DNA of 47,916 nucleotides, the filler included, from Streblomastix strix (Eukaryota): assembly GCA_008636045.1 (NCBI GenBank). It is 2 parts of 2 records of this genome, joined end to end, with 100 filler letters (N's around TTAATTAATTAA, not from the genome) between each part and the next. Parts side by side here need not be neighbours in the genome. Positions count along the whole stretch, not along the records: positions 1 to 23,930 come from SNRW01000253.1; positions 24,031 to 47,916 come from SNRW01000254.1. The stretch is one strand, 5' to 3'. A program made the position numbers and the translations under genes. Shown here in pieces: positions 6,453-43,366 of this stretch; position 1 is the first letter of the stretch; the number at the start of each line of letters is the position of its first letter. The notes beneath the pieces are model-generated. The model searched no databases. It saw nothing but the letters and a program-made list of their open reading frames with translations, and was not told the origin of the DNA.

Positions 6453-9254
6453 ATGACATAGGAATAACTACTTTTAAGTTTAGGTTTTTAAGTATGTATA
6501 CATTATTTATATCCAAATTCATGGTTATCTTTCAATTTTTTGTTCGGATTAGGTTTTCAAAACATTGGGTATGATTTTGTAGTTAATTTTTATGAAAAAT
6601 AAGATATTATATTTACTTCACAAATAATTTTAAAGGTCATGGCGCATTTGGACAGTATGAAAATAGTTGGGCTTTGCAATCAATTTTTTTTACGATTTGT
6701 TCTTTATTTTGTGTCCAGAGTATTCCTAGTGAACAGCACTTAAACAGGACTGATAGCTGCAAAGGTTATGCAGAAAAATGTGTTCGATCAGAACGAGTGG
6801 GGTGCTGCAAGAATACTTAGCCAGTATAATTTGCTTTATTGTGATGTTTTGAATTAATATTTTATTTTATTATTTAAGAGGAGAACCAATCCCATTTGTT
6901 GTTCAGTTTAATGCAGCTAAAATGTTTGAATAATAAGTTGTTATTCTGATGGAGTTTGCAAATATGAAGGCTTGTTTTTCTTTTTTCATTTTTTAAGTTA
7001 ATTTTGTTTTAATTCAAAATTATTATTATTTCAGAGTCTTGATAACATTATTAAACGGAAATCTGTTCTTTCTGGAGGAACAATTCGAGCAATTGCAAAA
7101 CAACTTCGTATGAATTATTAACATAAAAATTCTATTATTCTTTTTATTTTTTATTCATATTCAGTCTAAGGTATTAATATGATTCACTAAAAAGGTCTTG
7201 TTCATCGGTATATAATAATCAATTCTTTATATTTATAACTATTTAATTTAATTAATTAATTTATTTAATTTAATTTAATTTAATTTATTATTTGATAATA
7301 TCAGAGATATCAAAGGAGAAAACATTATGCTTCACAATCCAATTGGATCTGATCGAGTTGTATGAAATAAATTAAATAATAAATTATTTTTCATATATCC
7401 TATTTTATTATTTTATTATTTATTATTTTCATTATATTATTTATTAATATTATATTATTTATTGATTTATTATGATTAAATAGATTGTTAAAATAGCAGA
7501 TTTTGGACTTGTCAAATTTCAAGATCGATTATAATAAACGATGTTAATGTCTGCAAAAGGGTTTGAATAATTAATAATTTTCTTTTTTTTTTATTATTTT
7601 ATTTATTTTAATATTTAAATCAGAACTCCATTAAATATGGCACCGGAACTTGTTATTGGAGATGGAAAAGCTGATTCCAAAGTTTGAAAATATTATTATT
7701 AATATTTAATATTGAAATCTATTTATTTATATTATATTGTATTACAAATATAATTAGGTTGATGTTTGGTCTGTTGGAGTTGTGCTTTTCCAACTTGTTG
7801 GACATGAATATCCAATTAAAGCGATGAGCATTCCAGATTTGATGAAGTTTGAAAATTGAAAGCAAAATTGAATTCTTATTAATTTACATTTTATAATATA
7901 TTTTATTCAGGCTTATGTAATTGCAAACCATAAATCGACCTTCATCAATTCAAGATAACTTGCTCTGGGATCTTCTTATTCATCTTCTTGCATTTGATCG
8001 AACTAAACGTTTTACAGCAGCCGAAGCACTTCAACATCCTTATTTCACAAATCCATAAGCACGAAATGAAATTAGTTCATAAGCTCAATAAATTGCATTA
8101 AATTCACAAATATTGTAACAGAATGGAGACCAAAGTATCACATAATTTGATATTGATTCATCATATATTATTACATCAATTGAAATCAAAACTTCATTTG
8201 GCTATGATCCTTTAACTGAACTTCAACCAATCTACTAATAAATTTAATTAAATTAATAACAACTTGTAATTTAACAATTTCAATAATAATAACCTTTAAC
8301 CAATATTAATATTAAATAATAAAATCCTCCTTTTAATCCTCAATATCCAATTCCTATCCAAACAAATATCAATCAAATTTACCTACCGAATAATCCACAT
8401 CAATAAAACATCCCACCTCCATAAACATTTCTTAGTATTACTCCTCCTCCATCCATTCTTCCTTAATAAATTGTTATTCCTCCATAAAATATTCTTCCTG
8501 CTGTTACTAATATTTAATATTAACAACCTCATTAATAGTAATAATAATAATAATAATATGCAAATATTATTAATAATCAAAATCTTATTTATCCAAATAA
8601 CATACCAATTCAACCCGATCTTGATTAATCATAAACTTAACAACTTTCACCTCAATAATAATAACAATAATAATTGCCATATTAATAATCATATTAATAA
8701 TAACCATATTAATAATAACCATATTAATAATAACCAATTTAATAAATACCAATTTAATAATAATTTATTTAATAATAATTTCCATAAGTTGTTCCTCCTA
8801 CAAATCAACCTGGTTATTATCCAACACCAAAAGTTCCATCTTTAATTCCATCAAATATTAAACCAGCTTAGAATATTCAATATCCGTAACTTATTCAACA
8901 ATAAATTCAATAACAATAACAGATTTAGAATTTAAATTAAAATCAAAATTATATTATTCCTGGAAAAGATACTATTGCAAATAATAATGCATAATAACTA
9001 TAATTACAATCAGAATCCAAAATTCTTCAAAAATAACCTTAAATTTAATAAAAAGAATAATAAAAGAAATAAGATAATATTGATGTTGAATCAGATCCAC
9101 AAATTCCCTGTGAGCTTTGTAAGAAGTTGATTTCATTCAGTTAATATGAAGAACATGTACATTAATGTTAATAAGAATAAACACAAGAAAGAAAAAGAAA
9201 AGAAAATGAAGATATGTAATTTGCTTTATAATTGTAATATTAGGGCAATAAACC

Positions 9255-9330
<76 letters not shown>

Positions 9331-10008
9331 GAAACAATTGATAGAGAAAGAGTTAAATTGGCTGAAAAAGAAAGAGTTGAGAAGGAAAAACAAGATAAAA
9401 TTGAAAGGGAAAGATAAGAAAAAATTAAATGGGATAAACAATAGAAAGAAAATGAAATGCAATAAATTATTGAAAGAAATAGAATTGCCTAAGAAGAAAG
9501 AGATAGATTGAAAAAAGTAAATAAACCAAGTGCAGATCCAAAAAGTAGACTGAAATAGTAAGCAGAATAATAGAAAAAATAACCATCGTCAGATATTCCT
9601 TCTTAATATATTCCATCCGAACCAAAATCTAATATTAAATCTCCTCCATCATAAATTTCATCTTCAAGTCCTTCTAAATAATCACCTCCTCCTAAACCTA
9701 AACAAATTGCTTGTCCTTTTTGTTAGATATCATAAGATCGAAGTTCTATTTACGTACATATTAGTAACTGTTAGAAAGATCCAAAATATAGTTCTATTTC
9801 CACCCAAATAAAACAAATTCTCCCAAAAATGGAAAGAAAATGGAATGGTCAATTCCAAACTTAAAAAGGATAAAAACCTAATTGTCCTTTTTGCAATAAT
9901 AAACCTTCTTAATTCACACTAGAAAAACATTTGGAAGAATAACATCCGAATGAAATAGACATTTTCCAAAAACTCCTCAAATTCCACTTTGAAATGCAAT
10001 AATTATGA
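6453..10008 (+). CDS. Kinase A: multi-exon Ser/Thr protein kinase with Q/P-rich tail, three zinc fingers, MIU-like helix, polyQ and coiled coil
   Basis: Spliced: MTQEQLLLSLGFQ|VFKTLG|HGAFGQ|VFLV..AAKVM..MEFANMK|..HR|DIKGENIML..ADFGLV..G|TPLNMAPE..DVWSVG..RFTAAEALQHPYF. Last exon (about 7911-10008) is open and holds CELC..H..C (9109), CPFC..H..C (9712), CPFC..H..H (9883); TGA at 10006-10008. Confidence 0.93.
8758..9443 (+). repeat. Copy 1 of an approx. 650-700 bp coding module shared with kinase B (inverted relative to 14461-15110)
   Basis: Long near-identical stretches, e.g. cctacaaatcaacctggttattatccaacaccaaaagttccatctttaattccatcaaatatt, are present on the opposite strand at about 15007-15068. 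Confidence 0.92.
9256..9330 (+). repeat. (TAA)25 microsatellite encoding poly-Gln in kinase A
   Basis: 25 perfect TAA triplets in the reading frame of the last exon. Confidence 0.95.
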
Positions 10009-10343: not shown

Positions 10344-12302
10344 ATGAATTCAACTCAACAATCAGAAATTTAAAGTTCATAAGACGATAAAAACAGAGTT
10401 CAAAATAATAATTTAAATACGAGCTATATTTATACCAATGATATAGAAAATCCAAATATTATGTCATAGTCTGAATAAGATTTATTAACTACATAACTTC
10501 AAAATTAAACTACTTCAAAATATTCTGAATAAATAGAGAAATCTGCAGATTAAAATTTATAGAATAATTCTGAAGTTTTACAAAATAATAGTTTTTCTGA
10601 AATTTTAAAAGATACACATTTACACAATTCTGATGAACAATTTCAATATGTAACATTAAGACTAATTGATACTGATAATAATGGAGAAAACACAGATTAA
10701 CAAACTCTGTCAATAAATATAAATGAAAAATAAGAAATAAAACAAGATTTATCTGAAAATAACTTTTTAATATTATTACAGCAAATTTCAAGCACAACAT
10801 CAGAAATTGAAAAGTTAAAAAAGATCAAGCAATTGCATCAATAAATCAATAATTTTGAAGATGAATAAATATCGAAAGAAATTAATAATGACGTTTGTTT
10901 AGAGTTATTGAGTTAGATTGGAGAATGTAAAACTGTTATTGAATAAGAAATATTATCAGTTATTGAAATATTTAGTGAATATGGATCTTAAATTTCTGAA
11001 AGTTGGGAATTGAATCAATACTTTTTTCATTTTCAATCATCTGGATTATCAAAATAAATTGAGAAACTTCTTCTCTAATAAATATCATAAGAGAATTAAG
11101 ATGATAAATAATCAAATTCATTCTCTAATATTCTCACTCAACTATTTCTAATAATTTCTTTCATTAATAAATATAAACGAATAGAAAACGAACTTCTTGA
11201 ATAATTTGGATAATTTTATAAACTTCAAATAATTAATCTATAATAAAACATTGATAAGATAAATAATCAAAATAAGATATCACAAGATGAATAAATAAAG
11301 AATAAAGAATTTCTTGGAATTAATTTAACTGATGGAATAAGAATATTAAGATCTTTAAAAGGCCTTTGTGAGAATTCATAAAATCAATATTATTTTGTTC
11401 GTAAATTAAATATTCATGAAATTCTTGCTCTTCTTCTTCATATTCGATGTCCAATTGAATTAAATTGTTCATAATCTCTCAATATTGAAGAATCATTATC
11501 ATTATCAGAATTTATTGGTTGTATTTATGGAACAATTGCTGAAATCAGTTGGAATAAAGAGGATATCAAATAATTTCTTTTTAATAAACATCAAATATTT
11601 GAACATCTTTCATCTCATATCATTTCATTTTCTAATAAACATTCACTTCATAAGAAAGAAACTTAATAAATTAATTAAAATTCATCATTACAATAAATTC
11701 AAGATCCGAATTCACAATATCTTTCAGTTATTTCTGGATCTCTTCATTTGCTTTGGATTCTTCTTGATGATAATTAAATTCTATGTCGAATAGCTGAATC
11801 TACTTCAAAATTAACAAATTCGCTTGTTTAATTAGTTTAATTTGGAAGAAAATAACATTCAATTAGAAAATAGGAGAAATTATCAAGAGAAATAAGATAT
11901 TACAGTAATTTATGCATTTATTGGATTCGAAGATACGCAAATATTGGAATGCAATAAATAATTATCAATGATTGGAAATATATTGATATCCAAATGTCAT
12001 GTATATGTTTATTAGGAGGAAATGAAGAATAAAGCAATAAAATAATCTAAAATGGACTATTAAGTATAAACAGTGCCATATATTATATTCGAAATGGAAC
12101 TTCATGGTGTTAGTCTCTTCCATTAGTTATTAAAGATCTATATAATGATATTGAATTATTTGGAGGAGTAGAAGAAATTGATTCTTATTAGTTTCATTCG
12201 CTATAATTGTAAAATGATGATATTAAAGATTGGTCAGAAAATGCATTGAAAGAAATAATTAATATTCAGAAATATAATACAAACAGATTAAGAAATAATT
12301 GA
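10344..12302 (+). CDS. Intronless hypothetical protein (652 aa), helical/ARM-like, probably a lineage-expanded family
   Basis: ATG 10344 to TGA 12300-12302, 653 codons in one frame under TAR=Gln; N/Q-rich N-terminus, then I/L-rich helical sequence ending IELFGGVEEIDSYQFH..IKDWSENALKEIINI. Confidence 0.8.
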
Positions 12303-12890: not shown

Positions 12891-15800
12891 TTTCTTTGGC
12901 TTGCTTTGTTTTACTGGAGGAAATTAAGGTGATATTTAGCTCTATGGATAAAATTGGGGATTCGTGGCTTATTTTGAAGAATTAATATTATTACGAGAAG
13001 ATGATTAGGAAGATGATTAATGTACAATTCGTGTTTATTAAGGATTGTATTAATTATTATGAGAAGGTCGTTATTATGACTGAGATCTAATTTATTTCTA
13101 CTTTGGAGAACTAATATAATTATTATTAGGAGATGATAATGTAAAATTAGTTTAAAGTTTATTTTATTTCTAAATTGGAGAAATAATATTATTTTGAGAT
13201 TATTAAAGAACTGATGATTATTATCTATTAAATGAAGATTAGTCAAGTTATTTTAAACTTTCTTTCTATTATTATTGAATCTGTTGCTGATCTTTTTATT
13301 ATTAAATAATTTTTTATTAATCAATTTATTTATTTATTTAATGAAGTTGCATCATCATTCTAAAACCATCTAAATAATTCTTATGCTTTTTTTAAATGTG
13401 TAATTCAATTCCTTCAGCAAATTTATGCTTATCACATAAAGGGCATTTCAACATTATCGAAATATTATCAGCATGTTTATTTTCTATTGATTTGAATATA
13501 AGCAAAGTTTATTCAGAGAAATTCTCATAGTTTTCAATTTAATATAATTTTAATTGATTTTTAAGCTTTTATTTTTCTTTCTCTAATTTAATGATTATTT
13601 AAAGTTGAGTTTGTTTTGGTTAAAATATTGATAAGACTTTAGAAAAAAATCCAGTTTTAGAAGAAGGTGTTGTAATAGTATTTAAATATTGTATTGATGG
13701 AGTTTTAGATTCTTATTTTAATTATTATTCATTATTTATATTCTATTATTAGAGATTGAATTCCTCCATTTTCTGATTCATTGGTCCACTTTCATTTAAT
13801 TCTTATCTTAATCTCACATTATCTCCTTTTTATTCCTCTTATAAATGTTATTAACTTTGTTTCAGTTTGTCTTCTTTATTGATTGATTAATTATTAAGTA
13901 AAAAATCCAGTCGATTATTTTACAATTATAATATAGGTTCTTATTAAAACGAATTTAAATCATAACTTTGTTATTATTATATTAATTCTTATTAAATACT
14001 ATCCTAACTACTATTTTCTCTTTCTTTCAAATTCTTAGATATAGATTCATTATTAATTTGTTTTTAATTCATTCTTTATTTTTCTTATCTAATTTACATT
14101 TCTCCTAATTAAAAATGATAAGGCCATTATTATTTTTATTAATATTCATCATCTCTTTCTTTTTTCAATTATTATTCATTTTATATTCTTTATTATTCTT
14201 ATTCTTTCTATCTTTATTCAATTTATTTTCTAGCGATTTCTTCTTCATCTTTTTTTCTTTATTCTTATTCTTCATTCTTTAATTTATCTTTCTATATTTA
14301 TTTTTGTTATTCAAGTTCTATTTGTTTTTGTTTTAATTGTTCTTACTATTTTTACTATTCAATAATTCTTTATCTTTATTTTTCCTTCTCTTCTTCTTAT
14401 AATTATTTAGCAAATCTTTCTTATTCTTCAAATTCTCTTTATCTTTTTTCTTTATCTTTTTATTGTTTATCCCATTTAATTTTTTCTTGTCTTTCCATTT
14501 CTGCTTTAATTTGCTTTTCTTTCTCAACTCTTTCTCTTTCAGCCAATTTAATTCTTTCTCTATCAATTAATTCTATTTATTATTATTGTTATTATGGTTT
14601 TATATTATATTATTATTATGGTTTATTACTCTATTATTAAAATTATATAGCAAATAATTTATCTTTTTCTTCAATTCTTTTTCTTTCTTATTCTTATTAA
14701 CATTATTGTACGTGTTCTTCATATTAACTGAATGGAATTTGATTATTACAAATCTCACAAGGAATTTGTGGTTTTGATTCAATATTATCTTATTATTATT
14801 ACTTTTACTATTATTCATATTATTAAATTTAAGGTTTTTTTTGAGGAGATTAAGATTCTGTTTATATTTATGATTATTATTCATTATTATTTGTAATAAC
14901 ATCTTTTCCAGGAATGGTATAATTTTGATTTTGATTTTAAATTTGTTATTATTATTGAATTTATTGATGAATAAGTTATGGATATTGAATATTCTAAGCT
15001 GGTTGAATATTTGATGGAATTAAAGATGGAACTTTTGGTGTTGGATAATAACCAGGTTGATTTGTAGGTGGAACAACTTAAGGAAATTATTATTAAATAA
15101 ATTATTATTATTCATTAATGTTCATCACATTGATTTAATTAGTTGAATTATTCTCTCTTTCTTTAATGTTATTAACATTTAATTATGGTTTTGGTTAATC
15201 TTTTTCATTTTTAATTTCTAAAATATTATTTTTATTATTCTACTATTATTTATTAACAAGATTATATAAAATTTCAATTATTTTTTCATTGCTGTAATTA
15301 AGTTGAGTGAATTATTCATATTTTTTGTTATGTCTGTTCTGAACATGATTAATTATTAGTTATACATTGAACATGGTACTATTATTACAATATGGACATA
15401 ACATTTCAATTTACTTTTATTATTCATTTTCTTATTATAAATGTTAATCTTCTTCGTATTATAATAACTGAGCTATTCTCAAATCTTCTTCTTCTTGTTT
15501 CTTCTTATTTATTTCTTATATTCTTAATTATTCTTAATTAATTGTTTTCTCTTCAAATTTGTTTTTAATTCTTTTATCTTCTTTAATATTTGAATTTTCA
15601 GTTGTATGTTTATTCATTGAAAAATTTATGTTTTTATTGATATTTTAATTATTAATGCTATTTTAATTATAGTTTTAAGTCTAACTTGCAATTTGCTTTA
15701 TAGATTAACCAACATATGATTGTGTTTAATAATTCTTGATATTAATATTATTTTTATTTACTTTTCCTTATTATTTAGTATGATTATCTTGATGTTAATT

Positions 15801-18800
15801 ATATTCGTGAAATCTTACTTTCTAATTACAAATGTCACATTCTATTAATTCCATATCAACGTCTTCTTATTATAACTTTGTTGTATTTTCAATTATTTTT
15901 ATATTTTAATTGCTTTTTCCTTATTAAATTAATGGTTAATTCTTAATATTATTTTTATTTTATTATTAATTTTATTTATTGTTTGAGAAATTATTATTAA
16001 GTAATTAATTATTATTTAAATTAATACTATTATTCTACTTATCTGTTGTTTGAAATATTTTTGGAGAAGCTGCTGAATATTTTGGTTAATTTTTTGGTTA
16101 TTTGATATTTTATTTTTCAAGTTCTTATTGTATAGTATGATTATCTTGATGTTAATTATATTCGTGAAATCTTACTTTCTAATTGCAAATGTCACATTCT
16201 ATTAATTCCATATCAACATCTTATTACAACTATTATTATTGCTACTAATGTAATTATTATTCTTCCTATTTTATAGTCTTTCCAACAATCATTAATTATT
16301 CTGGAATCAAATTATTATTTCTATTATTATTTTATTATTATTAATTCTCCCTTTAATTTTTTTCTTTTTCTTTTTTTATTTTCTCAATCTCAAATGCAGA
16401 ATGTGGACCAAATGCAGGTTTTGTTGCATTTGGAGGAGAAAATTTTACAATTTAAACTGGATTAGGTTTTGGAGGAAGTATTATATTAGGAGAAGGTATA
16501 ATAATATTTGTAGAAGGAATAACTATCTAATTATTAGAAACAGGATATGTTTAGTTTAGATGGCTATTAATAATATTCTGGATTTAAGGTGGATGAATTT
16601 GAATTTAAGGTATTTAAGGTTGAACAGGTACAATATTGAATTATTATTACTATTAATGTTGAAGTTGAAGTTAGTTTTATGGTTGATTTTATGTAATTGG
16701 ATAAGTCTGTATTAAATTTGTGTTTGCTAATGGAGGTTATTAATATTATTAATTATTATTGTTATAATCTATTTATAAGTTTTATTATTATGGATTATTT
16801 TATTAAGGATTTAATACTTGTATTTGATTATTATTCTGATAAATAGGCTAAGGTTTTCTTTGGTTAACAATTTTTAATTCTTCCGCTTCTGGATCAAAAT
16901 TCAAAAAGACCTGAATATTAATATAATAATAAAAGAAATATTAATAAATATATATATTAAATATAAATATATTTGTACTTGTTTATATTTAATAAATCAA
17001 TTACCTTTATTTCTGGTGAAGGAACAATGAATGTTGGATTTGTATCATATATTGTAACCCAAGTCTCTCCTCTTTATTATGCATTCTTTGCTGTTATTAT
17101 ATAATAATATAAAAATAATATTTTTAAATTTATTTTTCTAATTTAATTTAATTAAAATACAAACCAGATTAAGCAATCTATAAAGCATATTAACTTATTT
17201 ATGAATTCGCTTGTTGTGCTAAAATAATATATTTAAAATAAAAAATAAAATAATTTCAAATTATAAATATAATTTCAAATTATAAATAATAATTAAATAC
17301 AAACAAAATTTCTTAATTTTAATTATTCCTGTTCATACATGTGAAGAATGGATGCTGAAGTGCTTATTCTGCTGAATATCTTTACTTTGGATCAAAATTC
17401 AGCATTTTAGACAATAAATCCCAAAGTAGATCATCTTTAATAGCAGAAGGACGACTAATTCTTTTCATCTAGATCATTTTACTGTGAGTAAATATATAAG
17501 TAATAATTATAATTAAAAAAGATTGTTATATAGAAAAATAAGAAAATAAATTATAATTAATATTTTTTAATTATATAATATTAGTTGAATGCAAACTTTC
17601 CAAGTTCTTTTATACTTCCAGCATTAATTGGATAATCGCGGATTAAAAGTTGGAAGAACACAACACCCAAAGAATAGATATCGACCTATAAAAATAAATG
17701 AATATGATTATGAGAAATAAAAATAATAATAAATAAAAATAAACAAATTAATTATTTTTTATTTCAATTCAAATATTAATAAAATTTATATTTTCAATAT
17801 ATACTTTATTATCGCTATAAAAAGAATGATTAACAAGCTCGGGCGCCTGACGAAGTAAATTATAAATAAAAGTATTAATAAGAAGAATAATTTAAATAAT
17901 AGTTATTTATTTATATGAAGATTTAAGTAATATTATTATATACCATATTTAATGGCGTTCCACAAGATGTTATTTACAATTGAAAATCCTACTTGATCTT
18001 AGCTAATCCAAAATCTGCTATCTTTGCCTTAATATTTCCTGAATAATATAAATAAAGCAATCATAAAAATAAAAGAAATATTTAATATTTAATTATTAAA
18101 ATAATTTAATTTTATTATTAATGTAGTTTGTTATTATTATTTATTATGTTCTATTTAATAATAAACCTCGTTGAGAATGTAGCATAATATTTTCTGCCTT
18201 GATATCTCTGATAATAAAAATATGATGGCATAAATAAAGAAAGAAATATAAATAATTAGAAAAATAAAAAAGAAAAAAAAAATAATTTAAAAGCAAATAG
18301 TATTTAAATACCTGTGGATTAAATTGGCAGAATGAATAATTCTTAATCCTTCAACTGATTAATATATAAATGTAAATATAAAAGAATATATATTACAAAT
18401 GAAATATCAAAAATTAAATATATTATGAAAATTAATTAATAAAATTCACACTGAGTTATTTTGCTAGTGCTCTAAATGATGGAATTGGTAAAATTAGATT
18501 TTTATTTTTCACAATAACATCAAGAGACTGAATAATATATTAAATTATTAAAATATATTAAATTAAAGAGTAAAAAATTCAAATAAAAAATAAAGAATAA
18601 TAAATCATACTTTCGCATTCGCATAACTCATAAGAATAACTACATTATTCTCAAATTTTCTAGCAAACAGATAATTCACAACAAACGGACACTGATATTC
18701 GGGCCTGAGAAAAAGATCAATAATAAAATTGTTATTCAGGGAAGAGATGAAATTCATACTTATTAAGTGCCCCGGCTGCGTCCCACTCTTTCTCGTCGAA

Positions 18801-23882: not shown

Positions 23883-23913
<31 letters not shown>

Positions 23914-23930
23914 GAAACAATTGATAGAGA
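19643..23930 (+). CDS. Three-RRM RNA-binding protein (hnRNP Q/R / SYNCRIP-like) with very long Q/N-rich tail; 3' end lost at the gap
   Basis: RRM1 GVYV|SNFP..KSFAFLRF; RRM2 NSLFIVNIP..SRGYGWATY; RRM3 KVRSLFVKGIP..GHAFIHF..IRVEWALP; three GT-AG introns; no TGA seen in frame before the N gap. Confidence 0.88.
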
Positions 23931-24030
23931 NNNNNNNNNNNNNNNNNNNNNNNNNNNNNNNNNNNNNNNNNNNNTTAATTAATTAANNNNNNNNNNNNNN
24001 NNNNNNNNNNNNNNNNNNNNNNNNNNNNNN
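23931..24030. other. Artificial scaffold gap/linker: 44 N + TTAATTAATTAA + 44 N
   Basis: Symmetric 100-nt spacer carrying the palindromic standard-code all-frame stop linker at 23975-23986. Confidence 0.97.
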
Positions 24031-27000
24031 TTTTTTTATTTTTTCTATTATTTTTTCTCTTATTCTTATTCTTATTCTTATTCTTTCTATTGTTCTTTTT
24101 CTTATTCGTTCTCTTATTCTTATACTTATTCTTGCTAATCTTCCTTCTTTTATTCTTATTCTTTCTTTTATTCTTATTCTTAGTTTATATCTTATTATTT
24201 CTCTTTTTATTTCAATTATTCTTTCTCTTATTATTTATCTTCAATTAAATAGTTTTCAGTTAGTTATTTATTATGTATTTGTTCAATTTAATGATTTGAA
24301 GATTAAGAAAAAGAAGATTATGATCCTTGAATTAGTGCAGATGGAATTGATTATATATTTTAATCATTTCCAATATAACAGTTATCATTTTAATCTTCGA
24401 TCTAATGTTATAATAAATATTATATCTTTTCTTCATCATCTAAATATTATTCTTTTTCTTTCTCATTATCTTTTTCTATTTCTTTTTGTAAATCACAATA
24501 CAAATTCTATTTATTCATATCTTATAATGAAAATTAAATTGCCATTTCAAATTATACGTCTTCATCTAAATTCAAATTATTGTTTATTTTTATTTCATTT
24601 TCAAGATTATTTTTTTTTTCATTTCTCTAATTTTCTTATTTGTATTAAAATATTATTTAAATAACTTAATTAGATTTTATCTTCAATTTATTATTATTGC
24701 TTTAAGAAAGAATAATTAATTAATCCTTATCAATTTCTTTGATTATTCTTTATTTCATTTCAAGATTTCCATTTTTAATTAAAATGAATAATAAATTTAG
24801 AGAATTAATTTTTAATCCAACTATTGAACTTTCTTTCAATATCTAATTAATCAATTTCAAAAATTCATTTGAAATTATTAAATTATGATTGAATTAACAT
24901 TCAGCTAATTATGAGAGTGCAACAATTGAATAAAATCTGAAATATGAATTTTAATTAGAAATTAACCTTTTCAGATGATTAATAATTATTTCTCCAATAT
25001 CTATTGGAGGTTATGTTGCTTTATATAAATATCCTATTATTAAAGCTGAATTATTCTTGATCTCAACATTTTTAAACTTATCATTTTAAATAAAATCAAT
25101 AAGTTTAAATAATAGTCCATCTTTTTCCATATCATTTAAAAATGGATTTATTTTCCCTTCTACTTCAATTTCACATTAAACATTCATTATTCTTTCAAGA
25201 GATCTAGTTACAATCAATAGAACATCGTCATTATCATTATTCAATTATTTTTATAATACTTTTGTTAATCCTTTCTCATTCAATTGAATTATTTCTTCAT
25301 TATCGCTCATTTTAATAAGTTGATAAAGGAAGTCAAGTAAAATATTATTTTCATTTTCATATTCATTATGATTATTGATGATTTTTATAATCTATTCAAT
25401 CATTCCAATTTATATGGAAATTTTCCTGTTTTCATTATTTTCATTTAATTATTCTAATAGAATTGAAATTAAAATTTCTTTTTATTTCAGATTCAAATTT
25501 TCATATTTATCTAATTAAGAATTGAAAAATTATAATTTATCAAATGAATTTGAATTAAATTAAATTAAATCAATAGAAGAAGATTGCAATAAAGATGATG
25601 ATTATTATATTAATTAATCTTATTACTTATCAACATTTTCATTTTAAATTTTTTATTCAATTCCATTTTATTTCTATTTATTTTCTTCTTCCCATTTCTT
25701 CTTCATCTGAATTTTATAATCATTTAAATTTTAATTCATATTTTCTTTGTTCTTTTCTTCTTATTGTTATTATTTCACTCTCTCTAATTGTTGTCGAGTC
25801 TTCTTTTTCTTCAATATTTCTATTAATTATTCTTTCTATTATTCTTTCTCTTATTTATTCTCTTATTATTTCTCTTATTAATTCTGTTATTTATTTATTA
25901 TTGCATCAAATTTATTAAATAATTAAGAAACTATTTTCCATTGTTGTTATTCTTATAATGATTCTTTATCATTCATTTACTTCTGTTATTTTTTAATCCT
26001 ATTATTTTTTATTTCTTTAATAATTTCTAATATTTCGAAAAGAATATTTTTATTTTCTTATTAATTCTTTTAAATATTATCATTTTCTAATGATTATTAA
26101 AGTGCAATCTATAATAATTATTCTTCATTAATTTCATCACTATCAAACTCAATTTAATTTTTGTTTATAATTTTATATTCATTATATTTCCAAGTCTCTT
26201 ATTCATATAAATTTTATTATGATTTCATTTTCTCTTTTTCATGATTTTAATTATCTTACAATGAAAGATACAATACATATTTCATTATTTATTCTTCATC
26301 AGAACCTGCTATTTTAATTTATACTACCTTATTTGGAATCTTAAATACATCCTTTTCAATTTCAGATCGGTTTGCTAAATAAATGATAAATAAAATAAAT
26401 TTGGATATAAATATTTTTAATAATATTAATAAACAAACATTAATTCTAAGCTAAGCAATTCAAAGCAAGTTTAACTAATTTTCTTACATTTTCTGTTGGA
26501 TTAAAAATTGATTTCAAATGAGAAATAATTTCAATTTTCATTTCATGGTTATTAATTTCCTGAGCTTTGAATACTGTTCCAATGCAAATTGCACATGTAA
26601 TTTTAATATTTTCATTTTATGATTTTCTGAATAATTTGAATAATTTCTCAATTCCTCCAGCTTTCTTTAATTCTTCATAATACGGATGAATTGAAATTAA
26701 TTCATTTTCAACTGCACCATTATATAAATAAAAATTGATTACATCAAGTGTAATTCCAATAATTTCTTCCTTTTCATGGTCTAAAAGGCGAAAAAGTGAA
26801 GGAAATGGCTTTTTCAGGAGAATTTATTGAATAATTTCATAATTAAATGTTTGTGTAGAGGTAAAGAAAGCATCAATAAATGATTATGTTATTAAACTCA
26901 GATATCGAGTATTAAAAATATTCAGTAATGAATCAATTATTCCAAAATTAATTATTTATTATCTAAATTCAAAATCTTCTTTATTATGCAATATCAAATA

Positions 27001-30000
27001 AATAAGATCACATCCAATTTTTTATTTCAAAATAATTTCTTTCTATTCATTTTCACTTCCAATAAGTGGTTATTAAAGATCTCTTGAAATCTTATCTAAA
27101 TCAACATATTTCATAATTTCTTCTCGATTTTCTATTAAAATAGATTTTTAAAATAATATTAGATAATAATTTAAGGAAATATTTATATGATCTTTTAAAA
27201 TTATATTTAATAATTATAAAACCTTCATTCTAAGCAAGTATTAAGAGAGATACATTAGAATTTTAATATATCATAAAATTTGGATCATAAAGTAGTGAAA
27301 TTAAGTGTTATATTAATTCAATTTTCATTTAATAATCTTAGGTTTCTATATAATTAAATAGAAACCCCAAACAAAAAGCCGAAGTGACTTTGGAAACTTT
27401 TGTTATATCAGTTCTTTTGAAAAATTTATATAATTTATTTATTCCATCATTTTGATACAATTTATCAAAATGATGGCGTAAAGAAGCTGTTGGAAATTCA
27501 TCAAGTTCTTTATAGAGAAAATTGTATATGGATGTGATTGTATATTCTATAATATTTACAACTTTAGATTCAAGAAGACGGAGTAAAGAAGGATATGGAT
27601 TTTTATTGTATAATAATTATCTGATTTCATTTGATGATTCAGTTAATAATGCAAAAAGAAAAATTTATGATTAAGTTATTTAGTCAATATTTCTATTTGA
27701 GAATATATCAAGAAGAGCATCAACAATACCAGCATTAATTATTTATTAACAAAATTCAATATTATAATTGTTGCCTTCCAATCTTTTAGTTAATTTATCA
27801 CATTCTTAATCTTATTATTCTATTATCTGTAATTTTTTCAATAATTATCCTTTAAAAGGTAATTTTAATATTTCTACAATTTTGTATAATTCTTAATTTT
27901 CAAGAATTTTCTATTATTCTACTTTTATTATTTATTCATCAATAATTTATTAAGAAGGAAGGTTTTATTAAAAATGTTATTATAATCTATTCTAATTTTT
28001 TGAAATTTAATTTAAATCATTCGCTTCAGTATTAATTTATTGATTTTTCTCAGGTTTTTTATTTATTATTCCTTCATTCAAAATTTCATTGTGTTCTTAA
28101 TTTTATTCATATGAATATTCATTATTGATATCAAGAGAGTGCTATAATGCAATTTTCAAAATTTCTTTTTCATTTAAATTATCATATTTATTATTTTCTT
28201 TTTCTTATATTAATTTAATATTTGAAATTGTTTAAATTATTTATTTTTAATGAATTATCATATTTTTATTAATCAAATTTAAAAAGAAGGATGCTTATTA
28301 AGAAATGATTTCATCTTCATTTGATTTAAGTTCAATTATTCTATTTATGTTTATTTGCTTCAAAATAATATTTTGTGTTTCATTTGATCCAAATATGAAG
28401 AGATAAATTAGAAGGAGAAGAACAAATTAATATTTTTTTTCTTTCTCGTCATCATTCAAAATATCATCTAACTGATGTATAAATCCATCAGCAATAATAA
28501 TTTAATGATTATCTGTATAATAAGAAAAATTTAAATATAAATTATTTTAAATATTAAACAACAAAATTATTTTAATATACATTTACACTCAGCAAGATTA
28601 AACAAAGTTTAAATTGAAAAAATCAAAGTATATTCATTTCTTTGTGAAATACTTTATTTGAGATGAATTATGATTTCTTATTAAATTTCAATTGGTAATG
28701 AAGTTGCTTTGAATAATATTCCAAGTATAATTGCTGCTTGGGTTTAAATATTTTTATTTTAAAATTTGTTATTATGAAAAATATTAATGAGTTTTGTTAA
28801 TGTTCCATCATTTTCCATCATAATTCTTAGAGGGTTTAAACTTTCTTCTTTTCCTTATCAAAATTCAATTAAAATTATAAATGATAATTAAAATAATTGA
28901 TGAAATAATATAGTTTCATTTCTATTCTCAATTATTCTATTTGTCCATTTTATTATTTCTTATTAATAGTGATTATTTTTACTTAAATCAGGAAAGTATG
29001 CAAAACATTCAACTAATAGACAACTATATAATGGATATATTTATTCAATTGGAATTGTGTTAATTATATTAAATAGAAGATCTATTATTCCAAGTTATAA
29101 TGCTTAAACCCAATTTTCAGAGTTTTTATAAAGAATTTTATATAGATTAACAAATATAATATCTCGTTCAATAAGTGACAAAGAATTGAACCTTTTTAAT
29201 TATTCTTTGATTTCAATAAGATTCATATTCAATTCAACTAATTCTTTTTCAGCTTTTAATTATTCTTCTGTTGCAAAATATGAAATTGATTTATGAATAG
29301 GAAGTTTTACATAGTCTTGATTTGAATGATGACTATAAATAGATTATTAAGAATTAAATAACGGAGATTAAGAAGATTAAGTACTTAGATAGATTTCAGA
29401 TGATGAAGATTAAGCTATATTATTATCTGTTTCTTGAGAACTATTAAAATGTAATGATTAATCATCCTTTTAATTTTATTCAATTTTATTTTAAATCATT
29501 TCTATATCTTCTTTCTATTTTTCAATTAATTTTTATTATTTCTTTTATATAAGTAATTATTATTCAACACAGCAATTCATGAATTTCATAATTTCAGATT
29601 GAGCTACAATGAAAGTTGGATTTTTATCATAAATTTATATTTTTGAATTTCTTTCTAATTCGGTCGCAGATGCTAATGATGCAAGATCTTATTATTCTGA
29701 CGAAAAATTAGCTTTTGCTTCTGGTGATGTGAAAAATGGATGAGTGTTTGCTTCAATAGCAATGATTCTATTATCTGGATCAAACTCCAACATATGTGAA
29801 AGAAGATCCCAAAGATGATTATCTGTGATTTCTGAAGGTCTCTAAATGCCTTTCATTGTTGCTAATTTTCTATATTGAAACAAAAATAATTATTAGTAAA
29901 TTAAAAATATATAAATAATGTTCATACTCTCCTTACTTTATAAATGTTGATTCATTCACAGGATATTTATGTGTAATAAGTCTGTAGAATGTGATACCAA

Positions 30001-31099
30001 GAGCATAAATATCTACTTTCTGAGTTACTATTAATGGCTTCTTGAATATCTCAGGTGCCTGAAGAATTAAATTAATTAATATTAAAATTTATTTAATAAT
30101 TCTTTGATTTATTATAATTCTAAAATACCATGTAAGGGAGAGTTCTAAAAAATTTAAAGAAAATCAATAGTTTTGCATAAAATAATAATTTATTCAAACC
30201 CAGCGGTATATGTTTGTTCATTTATCAAGTCTTCTTGTTTAGCAAATCCAAAATCTGAAATCTTTGCATAGACATATCCAGTTCCAGGTGGATTATGTAA
30301 GAGAATGTTATCGCATTTGATATCTCTAAATTATAATTTCAAAATAAAAATTAAAATTAAATAAAATTAATTAAATACCGATGAATGAGACCAGCATCTT
30401 GAAAATAAGATAACCCTAAAACTATTAAAAAATTATATAAATATAAAAAGAAATAAAAAATGTATGTAATAGATTTTTTAAACGAATTTATCTCATCAGT
30501 GCTCGAAGTACATATGAAGGAAGAGGAATTTGCGGTTATTTTGTTATGATATTCAACGTCTAAAATTAAAATAAATTCAAATATAATAAAATAAATAAAT
30601 ACATGCAAACTCCCATATTAGCGTATTCCATTATGATATATGGATATTGACAATCATCATCATATTTATAAAGTCTATTTATATAATTATTAAATTTGTG
30701 TTTTCAAAAGATTTCAAAATAAGCATCAAATTCTTTATAATTGAATTCATTTTTTTGAAAAATCTTCACAGCAGCCATTTAATACTAAAGAGAATAGGCC
30801 TAATAAACACTACAATGAAATAATAATAAAAAAATAAATTAATAAAAAGAAAAGAAAAAACAATTTAACAAACCAGCCGAAAGATCCTTGGCCTATAATT
30901 AGTAATATTAAAATTAAAATTAAAATAATTATTTCAAATAAATAAATGTAAAAATACCAAGAGGGCGAATAGGCTGTAGAGTAAATAGCAATTATTTTTT
31001 AAAAAGAAACAAATATGATAATTATTTCTAATAAATAAAGAAAAAATAATAATATCGTACTATAAGCATATTTGACCGAAGAAAATGTTCATAGTCCAT
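24031..31099 (-). CDS. Kinase C: Ser/Thr kinase + ARM/HEAT-like repeats + four UIM-like motifs + coiled coil; two in-frame TGA (readthrough or young pseudogene); 3' end lost at the gap
   Basis: MDYEHFLRSNMLI|PIRPLG|QGSFGC|VYQA..AAVKIF..IHR|DIKCDNILL..SDFGFAK..G|TLPYM|APEI..DIYALG. Repeated helical units (NPLR..ENDGTLTKLINIF, PYPSLLRLL, HPYYEELKKAGGIEKL, LAQN|NR.EI). TGA at 30704-30706 and 28858-28860. Confidence 0.82.
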
Positions 31100-32311: not shown

Positions 32312-32535
32312 AAGATTAAATTATTTGATCCTTTGCGAATGCATACAAGGATTATATCTGCGAGTGTTTATATTTAATTCAGTGGCGTTATACAATATAT
32401 ATTATTCAATCTTTATTTAAGTCTTATTTGTTAGTTTTTCATTTCACTAAACAATAAAACAAACTATGAGCTTTAAAATAATGTAATATTTTTATTTTAT
32501 GAAGTGATATAGAATTTAAAATAATAATTGAAAAC

Positions 32536-37922: not shown

Positions 37923-40900
37923 TCATTAACCTTTTAAATTAGCTGCAACTTCTGGAATGGAAAGGATTTCATCTGCTGAAATGCGCCGAGATGGATCCTG
38001 ATTTATTAATTCAATATTAATAAATATAAACAAAATAATTTATTTAAATTTAATATATAATTCCATTTTATTATACATAATAAATAAATCAATTAAATAC
38101 CTTTGATAGCATCGCTTTGATCAACTTCTTCAGACTATCTGGGTAATGTGCAGGGAGTTCAGAAGGTTCTTCAGTAACAATGCGATGTGCAATCTAAATA
38201 TCAGATAAGTCTGAAGAGTCATCCTTTTATATATTAATATAGAATAATTAGAAAAGAATAAGAATAATAATATAATAATAAGAATAAGAATTTAAATAAG
38301 AATATGAATTTATATATGAATAAGAATAACGTAATAAAGAATAATGTGATAAAATATTAACTTGCATACATCATTGTGAATGAATGGATGATGTTGAGCA
38401 AGGAGTTCGTAGAGCATGATTCCAATGGCCCAGATATCAACCGCTTTTGTTTATGTAATTCTCCTGAAATTAATAAATAATATAAATGTAAATATAAATA
38501 AAAAAAAATATTTATTAATTAATATAAATAAATAAAATATTACGTAATATTTTAAATTAATAAATATTTCTATTTTATATACTTCATAGGCAGCTTCTGA
38601 TTTTATTTTCCTGCTGCAAGTATTTGATCAATTTCATCTTTTTATATCTCTGGTGCAAGATAGAATCTGAAAAGTCATATTAATATTATATTAAAAAAAA
38701 TGGTTAGTTAAATATTTATTGATTAATATTATAATATTTATATTCTTTATCATACTTTGTTCCTCCATGATATGTTTGATATTCTTTCCCTTGTTGGAGC
38801 TTCCTGGACAATCCGAAGTCAGCTGATATACAAAACAAACAAATATATTAATTAATTAATTATTATAACATAATTTATTATAAATTAAATTAATTATAAA
38901 ATGAATTGATTTGTATATAAAACAAACCCAATTTCACTTTTATGTCTTCTGTAAGCAGAACATTCTCAGGTTTCAAGTCTCCATGAATTATATCATACTC
39001 ATGAAGTTGGTAGACAGCAGATACAATTGAACTCACAAATTCCCAGCATTTCTGTTTGATAATATGAAATAATATTATTTATTTATTGATTAAATGATAT
39101 TTAATATAAATACTTATTATAAAATATTATATATTTATACCTTAGCACTAATTTCAGATCCCATTTTCTATAGATTCTTAATATAACCACGCAAGTCACC
39201 TCCTGAGCACAGTTCCATCACAAGATATGCTTTTTCTTCATCTTCATTCACAAAGAATCCAAATAATTCAACAACATGAATGAATTACGATTAATGTGCT
39301 GATTATCTAATTATCCTTATAATATCCTTCATTACTTCAATTTCTCTGTTCATCATTGATTTTAACTCTTCTGTATCATAATCACACTCTTTTATTGCTA
39401 CAATTCTTTGTGTACTGATTTCTTACATACTATAAACTGTTCCAAATCTTCCTCTTCCAATCTTTTTGATCTTTATGACTGATTATGAGAAAAATAAATA
39501 ATAATAAAATGGAAAAGTTAAAAAAAAGTACTTTAAATAATTTCATTTATTATTAATTGTGAAAAATTATTTCATACAATCAGATAACTTCCAAGTAGTA
39601 TTAAAACATGAAATCTGTTATTATGATGATGAAGAGGATTACGATTATTGAACTTAAATTTATGCTTTAATGCCAAAAAAAGTAGCAAATCCTCTTTCTA
39701 ATCTCTATTTTTCTAATTATTCTTATTCAATTCTTTATCTTTCATTTTCTTATTCAATTCTTTATCTTTCTTGTTAATCTCTAATTCTTTAATTTTCTTT
39801 TTCTTATTCAATTCTTTATCTTTCATTTTCTTATTCAATTCTTTATCTTTCTTGTTAATCTCTAATTCTTTATCTTTCTTTTTCTTTTTCTAATTCAATT
39901 CTTTCTTATTCTTTTTATTCAATAAATATTTCATGTTTCTGATTGTGGAAAGGTACTTCGCTGAGATGATAATCGAGGTGTTCTTGATATTAAGAGAAAG
40001 GAATCTTCTAATGACATTATAAGCACTCAATATGGGCATTATGCTATTGTTTTGGCTATGGGCTAGGGGGTTGTGGCTAACGATGTCCAGCTTGGTTATT
40101 ATGGCCTCCACCACGACCGACTCCATGATTTCGATTCATATTCTCTGCATTAACTCTTTCTGCAACGTGATGATCGAGATGTTCTTGATATTAAGAGAAA
40201 GGAATCTTCTTCTTACATTATTCGCATTAAATTAACTCATTATCTTTCTAATTATTTTCTTATATATTAGCATTTTGAAATTATTAAGGCTATGAAGGTG
40301 GAAGAAGAATTGCAAATGGTTATGCATTATGTTCATTGATATGTTATAGATATTTGGAAAAGGGAATCTTTTGTTTACAAAATTAACAAGGAATTTATTA
40401 TTCTGCTTTATTTCCACCACTCTTATCTTTATTTGGTAGATTCTTTTATGAATTATTAATACTTTATGCAACATGGGAATCTTAGTGACCTTGAAATTGT
40501 GAGAATGGAATAAATTAATGACAGATTTCACAGTCTATTATAGCTTCTTCTCCATGATTAAATTTAACTTATTTATCAATTCCTTGTTTATTTATATTTG
40601 ATTAATTAACATTTTGCTTTGGTGGAGAAGATTTCGGTTTTGGTTGTGACGCAGCATTTCCTTTATGATATTCATCTATATGTTCTTAATATTTAGAGAA
40701 AGGTATCTGCCGATGACATACTTCACAATCAATTTAAGCCATATCAATTTCTTTTTCTTTTTCTTTTTCATTTGATTTTTAATCTTAATTTTCATTTCCA
40801 ATTCCCATTTATTATTTATATAAATCCATCTACTGAACAACAACTGTGTTCTTAATATCAATATGGAAATTAACTTCAGGTGCAATTGGAGAATTTGATT

Positions 40901-43366
40901 AAGGAGGAATTTATTAATTAGAAGAAGAAGATTATGAAGGTAATTAAGATTATTAAGATTATTATTGAATATTAACCTGATTGGGATGGTATCGATGTGA
41001 CTAATTAATCAAAGGTGAAATATATTATTATTTGATGATTGGAGATTGTGCATATTATTGTTATTATTATCCAGGAATTGTAGGTTATTATTATTATTAT
41101 CCAGCATATTATTATTACTGTTGTCCAGCATATTATTATTGCTATTATTATTGTCCAGTATATTATTATCCTGGTATAGCACCAATTTATGGAGAAGGAT
41201 TATAAGCAACATTACCATTGGGAGCACTATACTGCTGTTATTGATATTGAGGTGTTCTAATTGCTGGTGCTTATTATCCTTATCCTTATCCATGAATTTG
41301 TTTCACATTAATTGGCTGATGTACAATTGAAATATTTATATTCTATACTCCTTTGGATAATATTGGATCTTAGGCGATTAATTCTTATTGATGGTGTTTC
41401 AATTCTGCGATTTTGTTATTAACTTATTATTCAAATTATTCCTGTGGTTGATTAATCCAATCATATCCATATGAATATGCAATAACTTCTCTTAATCCTA
41501 GTGTAGATAATGGATGATTATTAATTGTTGTATTTGGATTGATTTAATATTATTATCCATTTTCATCTTATTTGAACCAATCATGATTGAGTGCTTCTTT
41601 AGCTGAAAATCTTTAGTTAGGATTGTATTGAAGCATCTTCTTCAATAAATCAATGCATTGATAAGAGCGATTTGTTGGCATATTCTGGATCGGACGTTGG
41701 ATTATACTAATAAATAAATCATATAATATTATTAATATTAATATAAATAATTTCAATATTTAAAATTTTTATACTAATTTCCTTTTCATACTTTATCAGC
41801 TATCCAATGTTAATCGCTTCAAATGGATATCGTTTAGTCAGTAATTGAAAGAATAGAACTCCTAAACTCCAAATATCTACTTTGTTATTATATCCAGGTT
41901 AAAATTATTATTATCCTGCACTTTGATTTGAACCTATCAATATTTCTGGAGGCTATAATAATAAATATTTTTATAAAATATAATAAAAATAAATATATTT
42001 GGTGATAAATCAATATGTCAATATTAACCACACTATTCCAAGAGGTGTTCTATTGTGGATTTATAATATTCCATATAACAATAAAAGGATATGAAAATGA
42101 ATAAATATATAATTATACAATAAATAATTAAAATTGAAAAGATAATCTCTAATAAAATGTATCTTATTAATAAATCAAACCCACATTGTGCACCTCCTCC
42201 AGTAAATGTATCAACTTCTCTCACAAGTCCATAATCAGTAATCTTCACAATTACATTATCTGTTCCCTATATAATTAATATAATTTTAATAATAAAAATA
42301 TTTATTGAAAAATATTTAATAATATTTTAATTAAAATTAATATAAAAGTAATATTTGAGTTAAAATATATAAAAAATATATAATAAGCATACAAAGATAT
42401 TATGGAACATGATATTGTCAGGTTTTAAATCTCTAAAAGAATAATAATTATGAATATAAAAAAAATATATAATATATTTGAAATATTTTCCATAATTCAT
42501 ACTGGTGAATCACTCCAGCTTCATGAATCACAACAACTCCTTGCACTAGATATGAGTAAAATATATAAAAATATGGAAAATTTGATGTATGAATTAGAAA
42601 TTAAATTTATTAATAATATTTTATTTAAAAAAAAGTAAAAAATCATACAAAGTTGCCATATAATCGGTTTCACAAAGTCTTCTCTAGGAAGAGGAGTAAA
42701 TTTATAATCTAATATCTTCTGCATAGGCTGATAAGTATAATGAAATATGAAATTATTTATTTAAAAGAGAATAAATAAATATATAAAAATTATTTAAAAT
42801 CAAACAGGGAGATTTGCATATTCCATCAGGATAACAGCAGAATTTTGAATTATTTGAGCTACTTTATAGTTCACAACATATTAGCACACGTTCGCTCCAC
42901 TTAAAAATGAATAAAAAATATTGAATTAATAGTGAAATGTTTAGAGAAAAAGTTAAAAAAAAATCATACTTACTCACTTTTCCAGCTACATCCCATTCTC
43001 GTTAATTAAAATGTTGCAAATCCATAACCTTAGCTGTTGCTATTCCAAAATCTTTTGAAACTACTAAATATACCCTATAAATCCGATAAAAATGTAATAT
43101 AAATTAAAAATTATTTGATCAGCAAAATATTAGCATAATCACACGTTCCAAATGCACCACGACCTATTAAAATATAAATAAAAATATTTAAAAATAAAAA
43201 TATAAATTTTAATAATGAAACATACCTAGATTTTTCAGAACCTTGACATCAGTATTTCGGCATAAATAGGGAATAAATATTAATATTAATAGCAATTTTG
43301 AAAAATACTATGATTGTTTATTCATACCCTACATCCAGCACTATCTAACACCGTATAATCCATCAT
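37923..43366 (-). CDS. Tandem kinase: N-terminal kinase (HQD/DYG) - Q-rich linker - five zinc fingers - coiled coil - C-terminal NEK-like kinase (HGD/DFG)
   Basis: Domain 1: MMDYTVLDSAGCR|VLKNLG|RGAFGT|..ATAKVM..IHQ|DLKPDNIM..TDYGLV..PPEI..DIWSLG..RFSAKEALNHDWF. The exon of about 41708-39578 is open without TGA. Domain 2: IGRGRFGTV..VAIKE..MELCSGGDL..IHGDLKPENVLL..ADFGLSR..YLAPE..DIWAIG..DPSRRISA; TGA at 37923-37925. Confidence 0.9.
39720..39895 (-). repeat. Coding tandem repeat (ERQRIEQEN / ERQRIRDQQ units) forming a coiled coil
   Basis: Recurrent plus-strand units ttcttattcaattctttatctttc and ttgttaatctctaattcttt. Confidence 0.8.

Follow-up and report, generated by a model that had tools for sequence, protein, structure and literature searches.

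The DNA considered here, a window of 47,916 nucleotides (nt) from Streblomastix strix, a protist of the termite gut (assembly GCA_008636045.1), is AT-rich eukaryotic sequence, translated with table 6, and it contains four paralogous protein kinase genes, designated A, B, C, and D, the last of which encodes a tandem kinase. Kinases A and B, on one hand, and C and D, on the other, are located on two unlinked contigs: the interval that separates them, described in the initial annotation as a gap, is an artificial join, and physical clustering of the four genes is thus ruled out. The assembly is fragmentary, of single-cell origin (PMC10703272), and the DNA of the window is present in one sequencing run, X1, a termite-gut metagenome that is possibly the source sample. 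The subject of this analysis is the tails of these kinases, in which short zinc fingers resembling ubiquitin-binding UBZ modules are combined with helices resembling the MIU (motif interacting with ubiquitin), and we propose that A, B, and D may be recruited by these tails to ubiquitinated proteins. The coordinates of all the features are collected in Table 1.

The exon chains were assembled by hand and verified by translation. As initially annotated, the four genes share a 5' architecture, with first exons of 39 (13 codons), 16 and 19 nt, and they also share a 43-nt exon whose end corresponds to the His-x codons of the catalytic loop. All of their introns are of the GT-AG type, with the single exception of a GC-AG intron in A (at 6970), found as GT-AG at the same position in B, C, and D. 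Kinase A starts with a Ser/Thr kinase domain (HRD and DFG intact), followed by a family extension of approximately 45 residues, a Pro/Gln-rich linker, finger A1 with an MIU-like helix, a charged helical stretch, and fingers A2 and A3. Kinase B, also with HRD and DFG intact, continues after the extension into a Gln/Asn-rich tail with five fingers and two strict MIU-like helices. In D, kinase 1 (HQD, DYG) is followed by a Gln-rich linker, five UBZ-like fingers, a charged repeat helix, and kinase 2 (HGD, DFG). The features of an active kinase (glycine loop, beta-3 lysine, catalytic Asp, DFG, one open frame) are complete in A and B. The post-kinase extension is common to A, B, and C and is absent from kinase 1 of D. 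Over kinase plus extension, identities are 48% for A and B, 34% for A and C, and 39% for B and C; identities to D kinase 1 are 39% (A), 38% (B), and 28% (C), and kinase 2 of D is 22-25% identical to these first-type kinases. The public record names kinase 2 NEK-like, a label that comes from the name alone. For kinase 1 our model agrees with the public model of D (KAA6402322.1, P0001) at every residue; the latter, however, contains a predicted intron within an open exon (40990-40215), which removes the cysteines of D4 along with the whole of fingers D1-D3; as a consequence, the databases undercount the D fingers. If the 99-nt intron predicted to connect the finger exon to kinase 2 is left unspliced, a stop results, the nearest upstream Met being 180 amino acids (aa) back, and the peptide at this join is also found in P0007, another tandem kinase.

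Such architectures could in principle be spurious, produced by faulty gene prediction or by the fragmentation of a single-cell assembly: the window consists of two contigs joined end to end, the 44 nt that close the first contig recur in gene A, and two of the proteins discussed below, P0002 and P0021, resemble fused gene models. We consider this explanation highly improbable, as one open exon encodes all the fingers of A, and likewise of D, together with the end of the kinase domain, the tail of B comes after two short exons that encode the extension, and similar architectures are present on other contigs.

Table 1. Features of the kinase genes and of the contig join, with positions counted along the window.
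Feature	Coordinates	Strand	Basis or remark
Kinase A, 12 exons, 920 aa	6453..10008	+	gene model and motif scan
Tail cassette common to A and B (P/Q linker, finger, MIU-like helix, charged helix)	8755..9457	+	82.7% DNA identity to B 15110-14447
Finger A1, CCHC, no Asp at -4	9109..9168	+	no Pfam match alone; copy B4 matches zf_UBZ, E 0.0056
MIU-like helix of A, D(-4) A(0) L(+3) complete	9211..9237	+	pattern; no Pfam match
Fingers A2 (CCHC) and A3 (CCHH, Di19-like), not UBZ	9712..9945	+	zf-Di19
Kinase B, 15 exons, 1654 aa	12888..19158	-	gene model and motif scan
Finger B5, weak Di19-like	13383..13445	-	zf-Di19, E 0.035
Finger B4 (CCHC, no Asp) and MIU-like helix with Phe at +3 (14663-14637)	14637..14759	-	copy of A cassette
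MIU-like helix (15485-15459), complete signature, then Di19-like finger B3 (15398-15330)	15330..15485	-	Pfam and pattern
Fingers B1 (16196-16137) and B2 (15839-15780), CCHH	15780..16196	-	zf_UBZ, E 0.0026, under cut-off
Artificial linker	23931..24030	.	N44-TTAATTAATTAA-N44, joining two contigs
Kinase C, at least 13 exons	24031..31099	-	kinase and armadillo-like repeats with four UIM-like helices between; cut by contig end
Four UIM-like motifs of C: ~28170-28135, 26297-26253 (Val form), ~26130-26085, 24563-24519	24519..28175 (span)	-	pattern or eye
Tandem kinase D, 19 exons, 1243 aa	37923..43366	-	gene model
Predicted intron of D, 99 nt, finger exon to kinase 2	39479..39577	-	GT-AG, in frame
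Fingers D1-D5, CCHH, including D2 (40532-40473) and D4 (40226-40167)	39966..40727	-	zf_UBZ, 86.2 bits, E 1.1e-24, 5 stretches

The tails encode a total of 13 fingers, three in A, five in B, and five in D, exactly the numbers initially annotated, and none in C. In shuffled tails the mean count was at most 0.013, with the observed count reached in 0 of 2000 shuffles, and no finger is present in any of the three long non-kinase open reading frames (ORFs) of the window that served as controls. As the patterns for fingers, MIUs, and UIMs (ubiquitin-interacting motifs) were written after the motifs had been seen, these figures are indicative of non-randomness and not of function. Based on Pfam, the fingers fall into two classes, and their original assignment to the ubiquitin-binding UBZ and TRAFD1/XAF1-like types can be maintained for nine (A1, B1, B2, B4, D1-D5), all UBZ-like, the remaining four (A2, A3, B3, B5) being of another class. 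Of the latter, A3, B3, and B5 match zf-Di19, and A2 has no clear match alone, the A2 and A3 pair scoring 29.6 bits versus a cut-off of 27.5, with the best stretch on A3. As to the UBZ-like class, D4 alone scores 38.8 bits versus the zf_UBZ cut-off of 25.6, and the B tail (21.9 bits), B1 (17.8), D1 (17.5), and B4 (16.7) remain under this cut-off; A1 produces no match.

The question of whether such fingers are closer to UBZ or to DNA-binding C2H2 fingers receives the same answer, UBZ, from Pfam, from a profile search of the PDB, and from the fold. All zinc ligands and an Ile/Phe core are invariant across eight aligned fingers, and when an eight-finger profile is compared to the PDB, the top five of ten matches are RAP80, Pol eta (2), and RAD18 (2), at E 0.003-0.11, rows for the DNA-binding BCL11A appearing from E 1 upward. 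The profile and the fold of the D fingers also match the WRNIP1 finger ahead of DNA-binding fingers. The AlphaFold model of D4 has a beta-beta-alpha fold (pLDDT 83), and its best Foldseek match is the UBZ of Pol eta (probability 0.96, root-mean-square deviation 0.6 Å). A DNA-binding C2H2 array was rejected, considering these BCL11A values, the lack of a Pfam match to classical zf-C2H2 for the D array, and the linkers of 45-120 aa between the fingers, unlike the short linkers of tandem DNA-reading arrays. The ubiquitin-binding face of UBZ2/UBZ3 domains and of the MIU is composed of D(-4), A(0), and L(+3) (PMC4267625), and that of the Pol eta UBZ of D652, F655, and A656, with a dissociation constant (KD) of ~160 uM (PMC11482926). 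D2 and D4 possess the Asp, the Ala, and a hydrophobic residue at +3 (Ile/Val replacing Leu), D1 and D5 keep the Asp, and D3 keeps the Ala; B1 and B2, whose protein sequences are the same, have retained the Asp and lost the Ala.

The MIU-like helices placed by the initial annotation near 9202 and 15447-15500 are recovered by a strict pattern, D-x3-A-x2-[LF]-Q, along with a third one, resulting in one helix in A and two in B (shuffle means 0.002-0.004); a Pfam profile scan of these helices produced no match. Two of the three (A 9211-9237 and B 15485-15459) conform fully to the MIU type, i.e., one helix whose N-terminal end is acidic, with D(-4), A(0), and L(+3), and the other (B 14663-14637) has Phe at +3. 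The four UIM-like motifs noted in C fit, by pattern or by eye and with the Val variant included, the UIM consensus of an acidic run, hydrophobic-x-x-Ala/Val-hydrophobic-x-x-Ser, and further acidic residues (PMC5361193). Three are of the Ala form (shuffle mean 0.02) and one has Val; the Pfam UIM profile (PF02809) places the three C windows examined below its cut-off of 21, two with 14.9 and 13.4 bits (E 0.023 and 0.074) and the third with no match.

Kinase C itself is probably a pseudogene, a decayed member of the family whose sequence appears unable to make a normal kinase. In-frame TGA codons are found at aa 60 (30706-30704) and aa 559 (28860-28858). Only one splice bypasses the first stop, and that one deletes the beta-3 lysine; for the second there are many, all at the cost of coding sequence of the armadillo-like repeats, which are weak Pfam matches. 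Both stops are located within contigs of the X1 run, with 0 letters differing (24040-34200 compared), and, X1 being possibly the source sample, this agreement speaks against a late assembly slip without being independent support. Past the stops the frames are open for ~1500 codons, suggesting a recent loss of C or, alternatively, a tail that belongs to a gene of its own, and a kinase-UIM protein is unsupported in both cases. Of the three module classes proposed to converge on one working kinase family, the UIM class is thus lost, as its only carrier is a broken gene.

Tails have been shuffled among the kinases of this family, as originally suggested by their differing architectures. In the cassette common to A and B, synonymous divergence (dS) is 0.25 (216 codons) versus 1.7 in the kinase domains, pointing to recent copying of a finger and MIU module between the two genes; the ratio of nonsynonymous to synonymous divergence (dN/dS) is 0.54 for the cassette and 0.26 for the A and B kinases, with kinase dS near saturation. 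Internal duplicates are also highly similar, with DNA identities of 95% between B1 and B2 and 91% between D4 and D5. Counts for the wider family and its architectures are lower bounds, originating from word-limited searches and one full scan, by which A and B themselves were not recovered. Among eight other family members (three partial), at least three possess fingers, one possesses armadillo repeats, and three possess a second kinase like D; strict MIU or UIM motifs were found by pattern in none of the eight. A kinase with a finger is encoded on other contigs by P0005, P0006, and P0012, and one with a Di19-like finger by P0004. The tandem kinase order is also found in P0003, P0006, and P0007, the catalytic Asp of the first domain being lost in P0006 and P0007 and the first domain being incomplete in P0003. 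In a tree (drawn open), 11 first-type kinase domains group together at 88/90, and four second domains at 100/98. P0012 (KAA6398909.1), a divergent Streblomastix pseudokinase without catalytic Asp or DFG, encodes four fingers of the same type, with Asp(-4) in 0/4; it forms a long branch, and its placement is unsure. In the Atlas, 57 Preaxostyla proteins form a cluster whose alignment extends across kinase and extension.

As to the nearest kinase group, the family profile matches ULK1 at 118 bits, CDPK at 114, and PAK at 107 (ULK1 thus ahead of CDPK by 4); with P0004 as a query, ULK1, STK10, and Snf1 are tied at 94, and with P0009, Aurora comes first, tighter searches with P0009 and P0008 producing no match. 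Assignment to ULK/Atg1 was thus inconsistent, with the top match changing with the query; for the C-terminal tandem MIT domain of Atg1/ULK, none of the four tails (A, B, C, and D) produced a Pfam match up to E 3. A predicted model of kinase plus family extension had a mean pLDDT of 47 and was not used.

These data also bear on an explanation in terms of birth and death, by which a large, fast-turning family in a repeat-rich genome acquires mobile finger and Gln-rich cassettes through recombination, most of them decaying, even if a few might contact ubiquitin, with no sensing under selection. This would account for the two stops in C, the erosion of the finger signature in 11 of the 13 fingers, the recent copying of a cassette with a dN/dS of 0.5, the presence of the same finger in a U-box protein and in a PA28 model of this genome, the missing catalytic Asp of the P0012 kinase and of the first kinase domain in both P0006 and P0007, and the size of the 57-member cluster. 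We nevertheless find it rather unlikely: A, B, and D are intact across 920-1654 codons, zinc ligands and the Ile/Phe core have remained invariant in the eight aligned fingers, dN/dS for the A and B kinases is 0.26 (dS being near saturation), and motifs of the UBZ, MIU, and UIM types are all present in this small sample, versus 0/3 control ORFs.

The distribution of the finger outside the family was assessed by a profile scan of 1.84 billion representatives, with the top five families per protein considered. The 27 matches include five E3-type proteins (three RING, one U-box, one Deltex plus RING), two ZUP1-type peptidases, three proteins with a Pol eta C-terminal match, one PARP (under cut-off), one PA28, one kinase, 13 proteins with fingers only, and one plant repeat protein (P0011), the top-scoring match, excluded from the finger counts. 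The nearest relatives outside the family thus occur in E3 ligases, in deubiquitinases resembling ZUP1, and in Pol eta. Among the relatives with a name, those of Streblomastix are kinase P0012, PA28 model P0021, and U-box protein P0020, and further relatives come from a dinoflagellate and a foraminiferan. P0023 and P0034 are protist ZUP1-like deubiquitinases (one of them foraminiferan) with four N-terminal Ile-Pro fingers without Asp, and one of the two also has a weak UIM match. In eight Pol eta-like proteins (three recognized by Pfam and five by eye, a partly circular choice) Asp and Ala are present in 19/19 fingers; in the other 18 proteins Asp is present in 9 of 56 fingers, as compared to 4/5 in D. 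Judging from these sequences, this finger is a mobile module of protists that mainly accompanies enzymes of the ubiquitin system and usually lacks the canonical face, in which D is richer than the family at large.

As most of the related protist fingers do not have the Asp/Ala signature, the conserved face of the family may serve another partner: the fingers, folded and selected, could bind a TRAFD1/XAF1-like partner, a ubiquitin-like modifier, ADP-ribose, or nucleosomal DNA. We regard this as quite unlikely, even if a number of observations are in its favor. The conserved face is Ile-Pro-Phe...Tyr rather than Asp/Ala; a finger-only relative is nearest to Atlas clusters of XAF1/TRAFD1/CEP104, all under 0.9 and leads only; in a word-limited finger search of a 5.8-billion set, a TRAFD1/XAF1-like protein was the only non-self match listed; PARP and Deltex proteins are among the finger relatives; the Pol eta UBZ also binds NEDD8 (PMC11482926); and three fingers match zf-Di19, which in RNF114 reads ADP-ribose via a WGD motif (PMC12583694). 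However, D2 and D4 fit the UBZ3 rule, the adjoining MIU-like helices independently indicate ubiquitin, and the wide finger spacing is unlike that of DNA-reading arrays. ADP-ribose reading of the RNF114 type by the Di19-like fingers was rejected, as neither a WGD motif nor a following UIM is present in A or B.

The explanation that we prefer, with a probability of about 55%, is that the tails of A, B, and D recruit the kinases to polyubiquitinated proteins by avidity, and that the resulting clustering switches on phosphorylation. A, B, and D would then represent an expanded Streblomastix kinase family with swapped tails composed of UBZ-like fingers and MIU-like helices, each module weakly binding the Ile44 patch of ubiquitin. 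Single modules being weak, as the KD of the Pol eta UBZ suggests, binding by avidity would need several readers, and the five flexibly linked fingers of D, or the fingers plus MIUs of A and B, may engage chains or multiply tagged surfaces with little choice of linkage, the readers being carried on a Gln/Pro-rich tether taken to be disordered. ZUP1, another enzyme with multiple readers, employs its fingers and MIU in this manner (PMC5896202, PMC8776766). Dimerisation may come from the charged helical stretches, which were recognized by eye, and crowding would allow trans-phosphorylation. In D, kinase 2 would be the main catalyst and kinase 1 a regulator, as suggested by the loss of the catalytic Asp in the first domain of two of the three tandem relatives, the third being incomplete; C would add no working kinase-UIM protein.

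A number of observations weigh against this explanation. The full signature of Asp, Ala, and a hydrophobic residue is present in only 2 of the 13 fingers (D2 and D4) and the Asp in 6 of 13, and A1 and B4 keep none of it, an MIU-like helix directly following each; Asp and Ala occur together in 2 of the 56 fingers of the relatives other than Pol eta. In the 49-codon core of finger and MIU of the A/B cassette dN/dS is ~0.50, five of the eight other family members retrieved (three partial) have no finger, and C, the sole UIM carrier of the four, is broken. Among the Foldseek matches of D4 none attains E 0.001, and the second in rank is the finger of Sgf11, which binds nucleosomal DNA. Known systems also call for caution: in ZUP1 a canonical-looking MIU binds ubiquitin poorly, and one of four fingers dominates the binding (PMC5896202), and deletion of the RAP80 fingers is described, in a preprint, as having a marginal effect only (10.64898/2026.06.05.730395). 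Overall, the originally proposed ubiquitin-sensing family is backed by the class of its fingers and by the shuffling, and it is weakened by the incomplete signatures, by the fingerless members, and by the occurrence of the finger outside kinases. The further proposal of a combinatorial system that reads ubiquitin chains finds no support here, no result pointing to chain reading or to a coordinated code.

A number of other loci are present in the window. A gene with an RRM (~20365-23930, plus strand) extends past the end of contig 1. The 44 nt at the end of this gene (23887-23930) are identical to a segment of kinase A after a Gln repeat, possibly reflecting an assembly join through a repeat, or else a further cassette copy. 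Positions 1121-4800 are retroelement-like, with overlapping and seemingly interrupted frames, a reverse transcriptase match (RVT_1, E 9e-13), and, downstream of it, an RNase H-like stretch recognized by eye. An intron-rich WD40 gene (32700-36000, minus strand) has WD40 matches only; by eye it resembles CIAO1/Cia1 of cytosolic Fe-S assembly. Two long, single-frame ORFs, 43787-47914 (minus strand, 1376 aa) and 10347-12299 (plus strand, 651 aa), have no Pfam assignment.

Kinases tied to ubiquitin readers are already known, and what is new here is the multi-UBZ tandem kinase, along with the cassette-swapping paralogues. The literature on Streblomastix and oxymonad kinases, on kinases with UBZ, and on kinases with ubiquitin-binding domains contains no description of these proteins, in agreement with the initial annotation, this coverage being exclusive of the supplementary kinase tables of M. 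exilis and the original S. strix genome paper; the accessible portion of a Stentor kinome preprint mentions neither ubiquitin nor zinc fingers. What is known of ubiquitin-triggered kinase activation comes mainly from animals, where separate adaptors are used. With a kinase-5xUBZ-kinase protein and its reader-trading paralogues, an amitochondriate lineage that diverged deeply would have arrived independently at a solution within one chain. The graded loss of Asp and Ala over near-identical fingers would provide a natural series on what makes a UBZ bind, and this series would tell the role of the widespread protist Ile-Pro-Phe finger in E3 ligases and ZUP1-like enzymes. A more speculative reading, which we consider improbable, is that of one-piece ubiquitin sensors, in which diversifying kinases and kinase-pseudokinase tandems, their reader tails reshuffled like those of immune receptors, would police ubiquitin-coated bacteria. 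If so, such sensors would fuse the jobs that animals divide between receptors (NDP52/TAX1BP1, TAB2, NEMO) and kinases (ULK, TBK1, TAK1), in a cell that lives covered with symbionts and has a relative without a recognizable Atg1. This relative, M. exilis, is described as possessing a large expansion of tyrosine kinase-like (TKL) kinases and no Atg1 (PMC6759080).

In comparison with known systems, the UBZ3 of Pol eta (PF18439; 3WUP, 2I5O) shares with the fingers described here the CCHH beta-beta-alpha fold and the spacing and, in D2 and D4, the D(-4), A(0), hydrophobic(+3) signature. The differences are arrays of up to five within a kinase, the additional Ile-Pro-Phe...Tyr face, and a signature that is mostly incomplete; D1-D5, B1, and B2 conform to the CCHH ligand pattern of UBZ3, and A1 and B4, being CCHC, do not. 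The RAP80 finger is the best PDB sequence match, with the same Pro-Phe...Tyr pattern, and TRAFD1/XAF1-like fingers match too, but these are CCHC fingers in adaptors, and that of RAP80 adds little to chain cleavage, according to the preprint cited above. ZUP1/ZUFSP is likewise an enzyme with several UBZ-like fingers and an MIU, its modules traded between lineages (PMC5896202, PMC8776766), and the same finger type is found in protist ZUP1-like proteins, whereas the catalytic domain is here a kinase, with modules that are C-terminal, on long Gln-rich tethers, and of no evident rigid spacing. The coupling of phosphorylation output to ubiquitin recognition is shared with kinases that have built-in or adaptor-borne readers. 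Such readers are the UBA of ACK1 and of AMPK-related kinases, and the TAK1-TAB2, IKK-NEMO, and TBK1-NDP52/TAX1BP1 pairs; a single domain or a separate adaptor is used there, whereas here several readers are fused to the kinase and shuffled among paralogues. MEKK1, a kinase with a UIM, is another example (PMC1832185). Finally, D resembles the plant tandem kinase proteins in having two kinase domains, one of which is often degenerate, along with an added binding module, in an expanded and variable family (PMC8761531). The two domains of D are, however, mutually unrelated (23% identity), and the resemblance is drawn as an analogy only.

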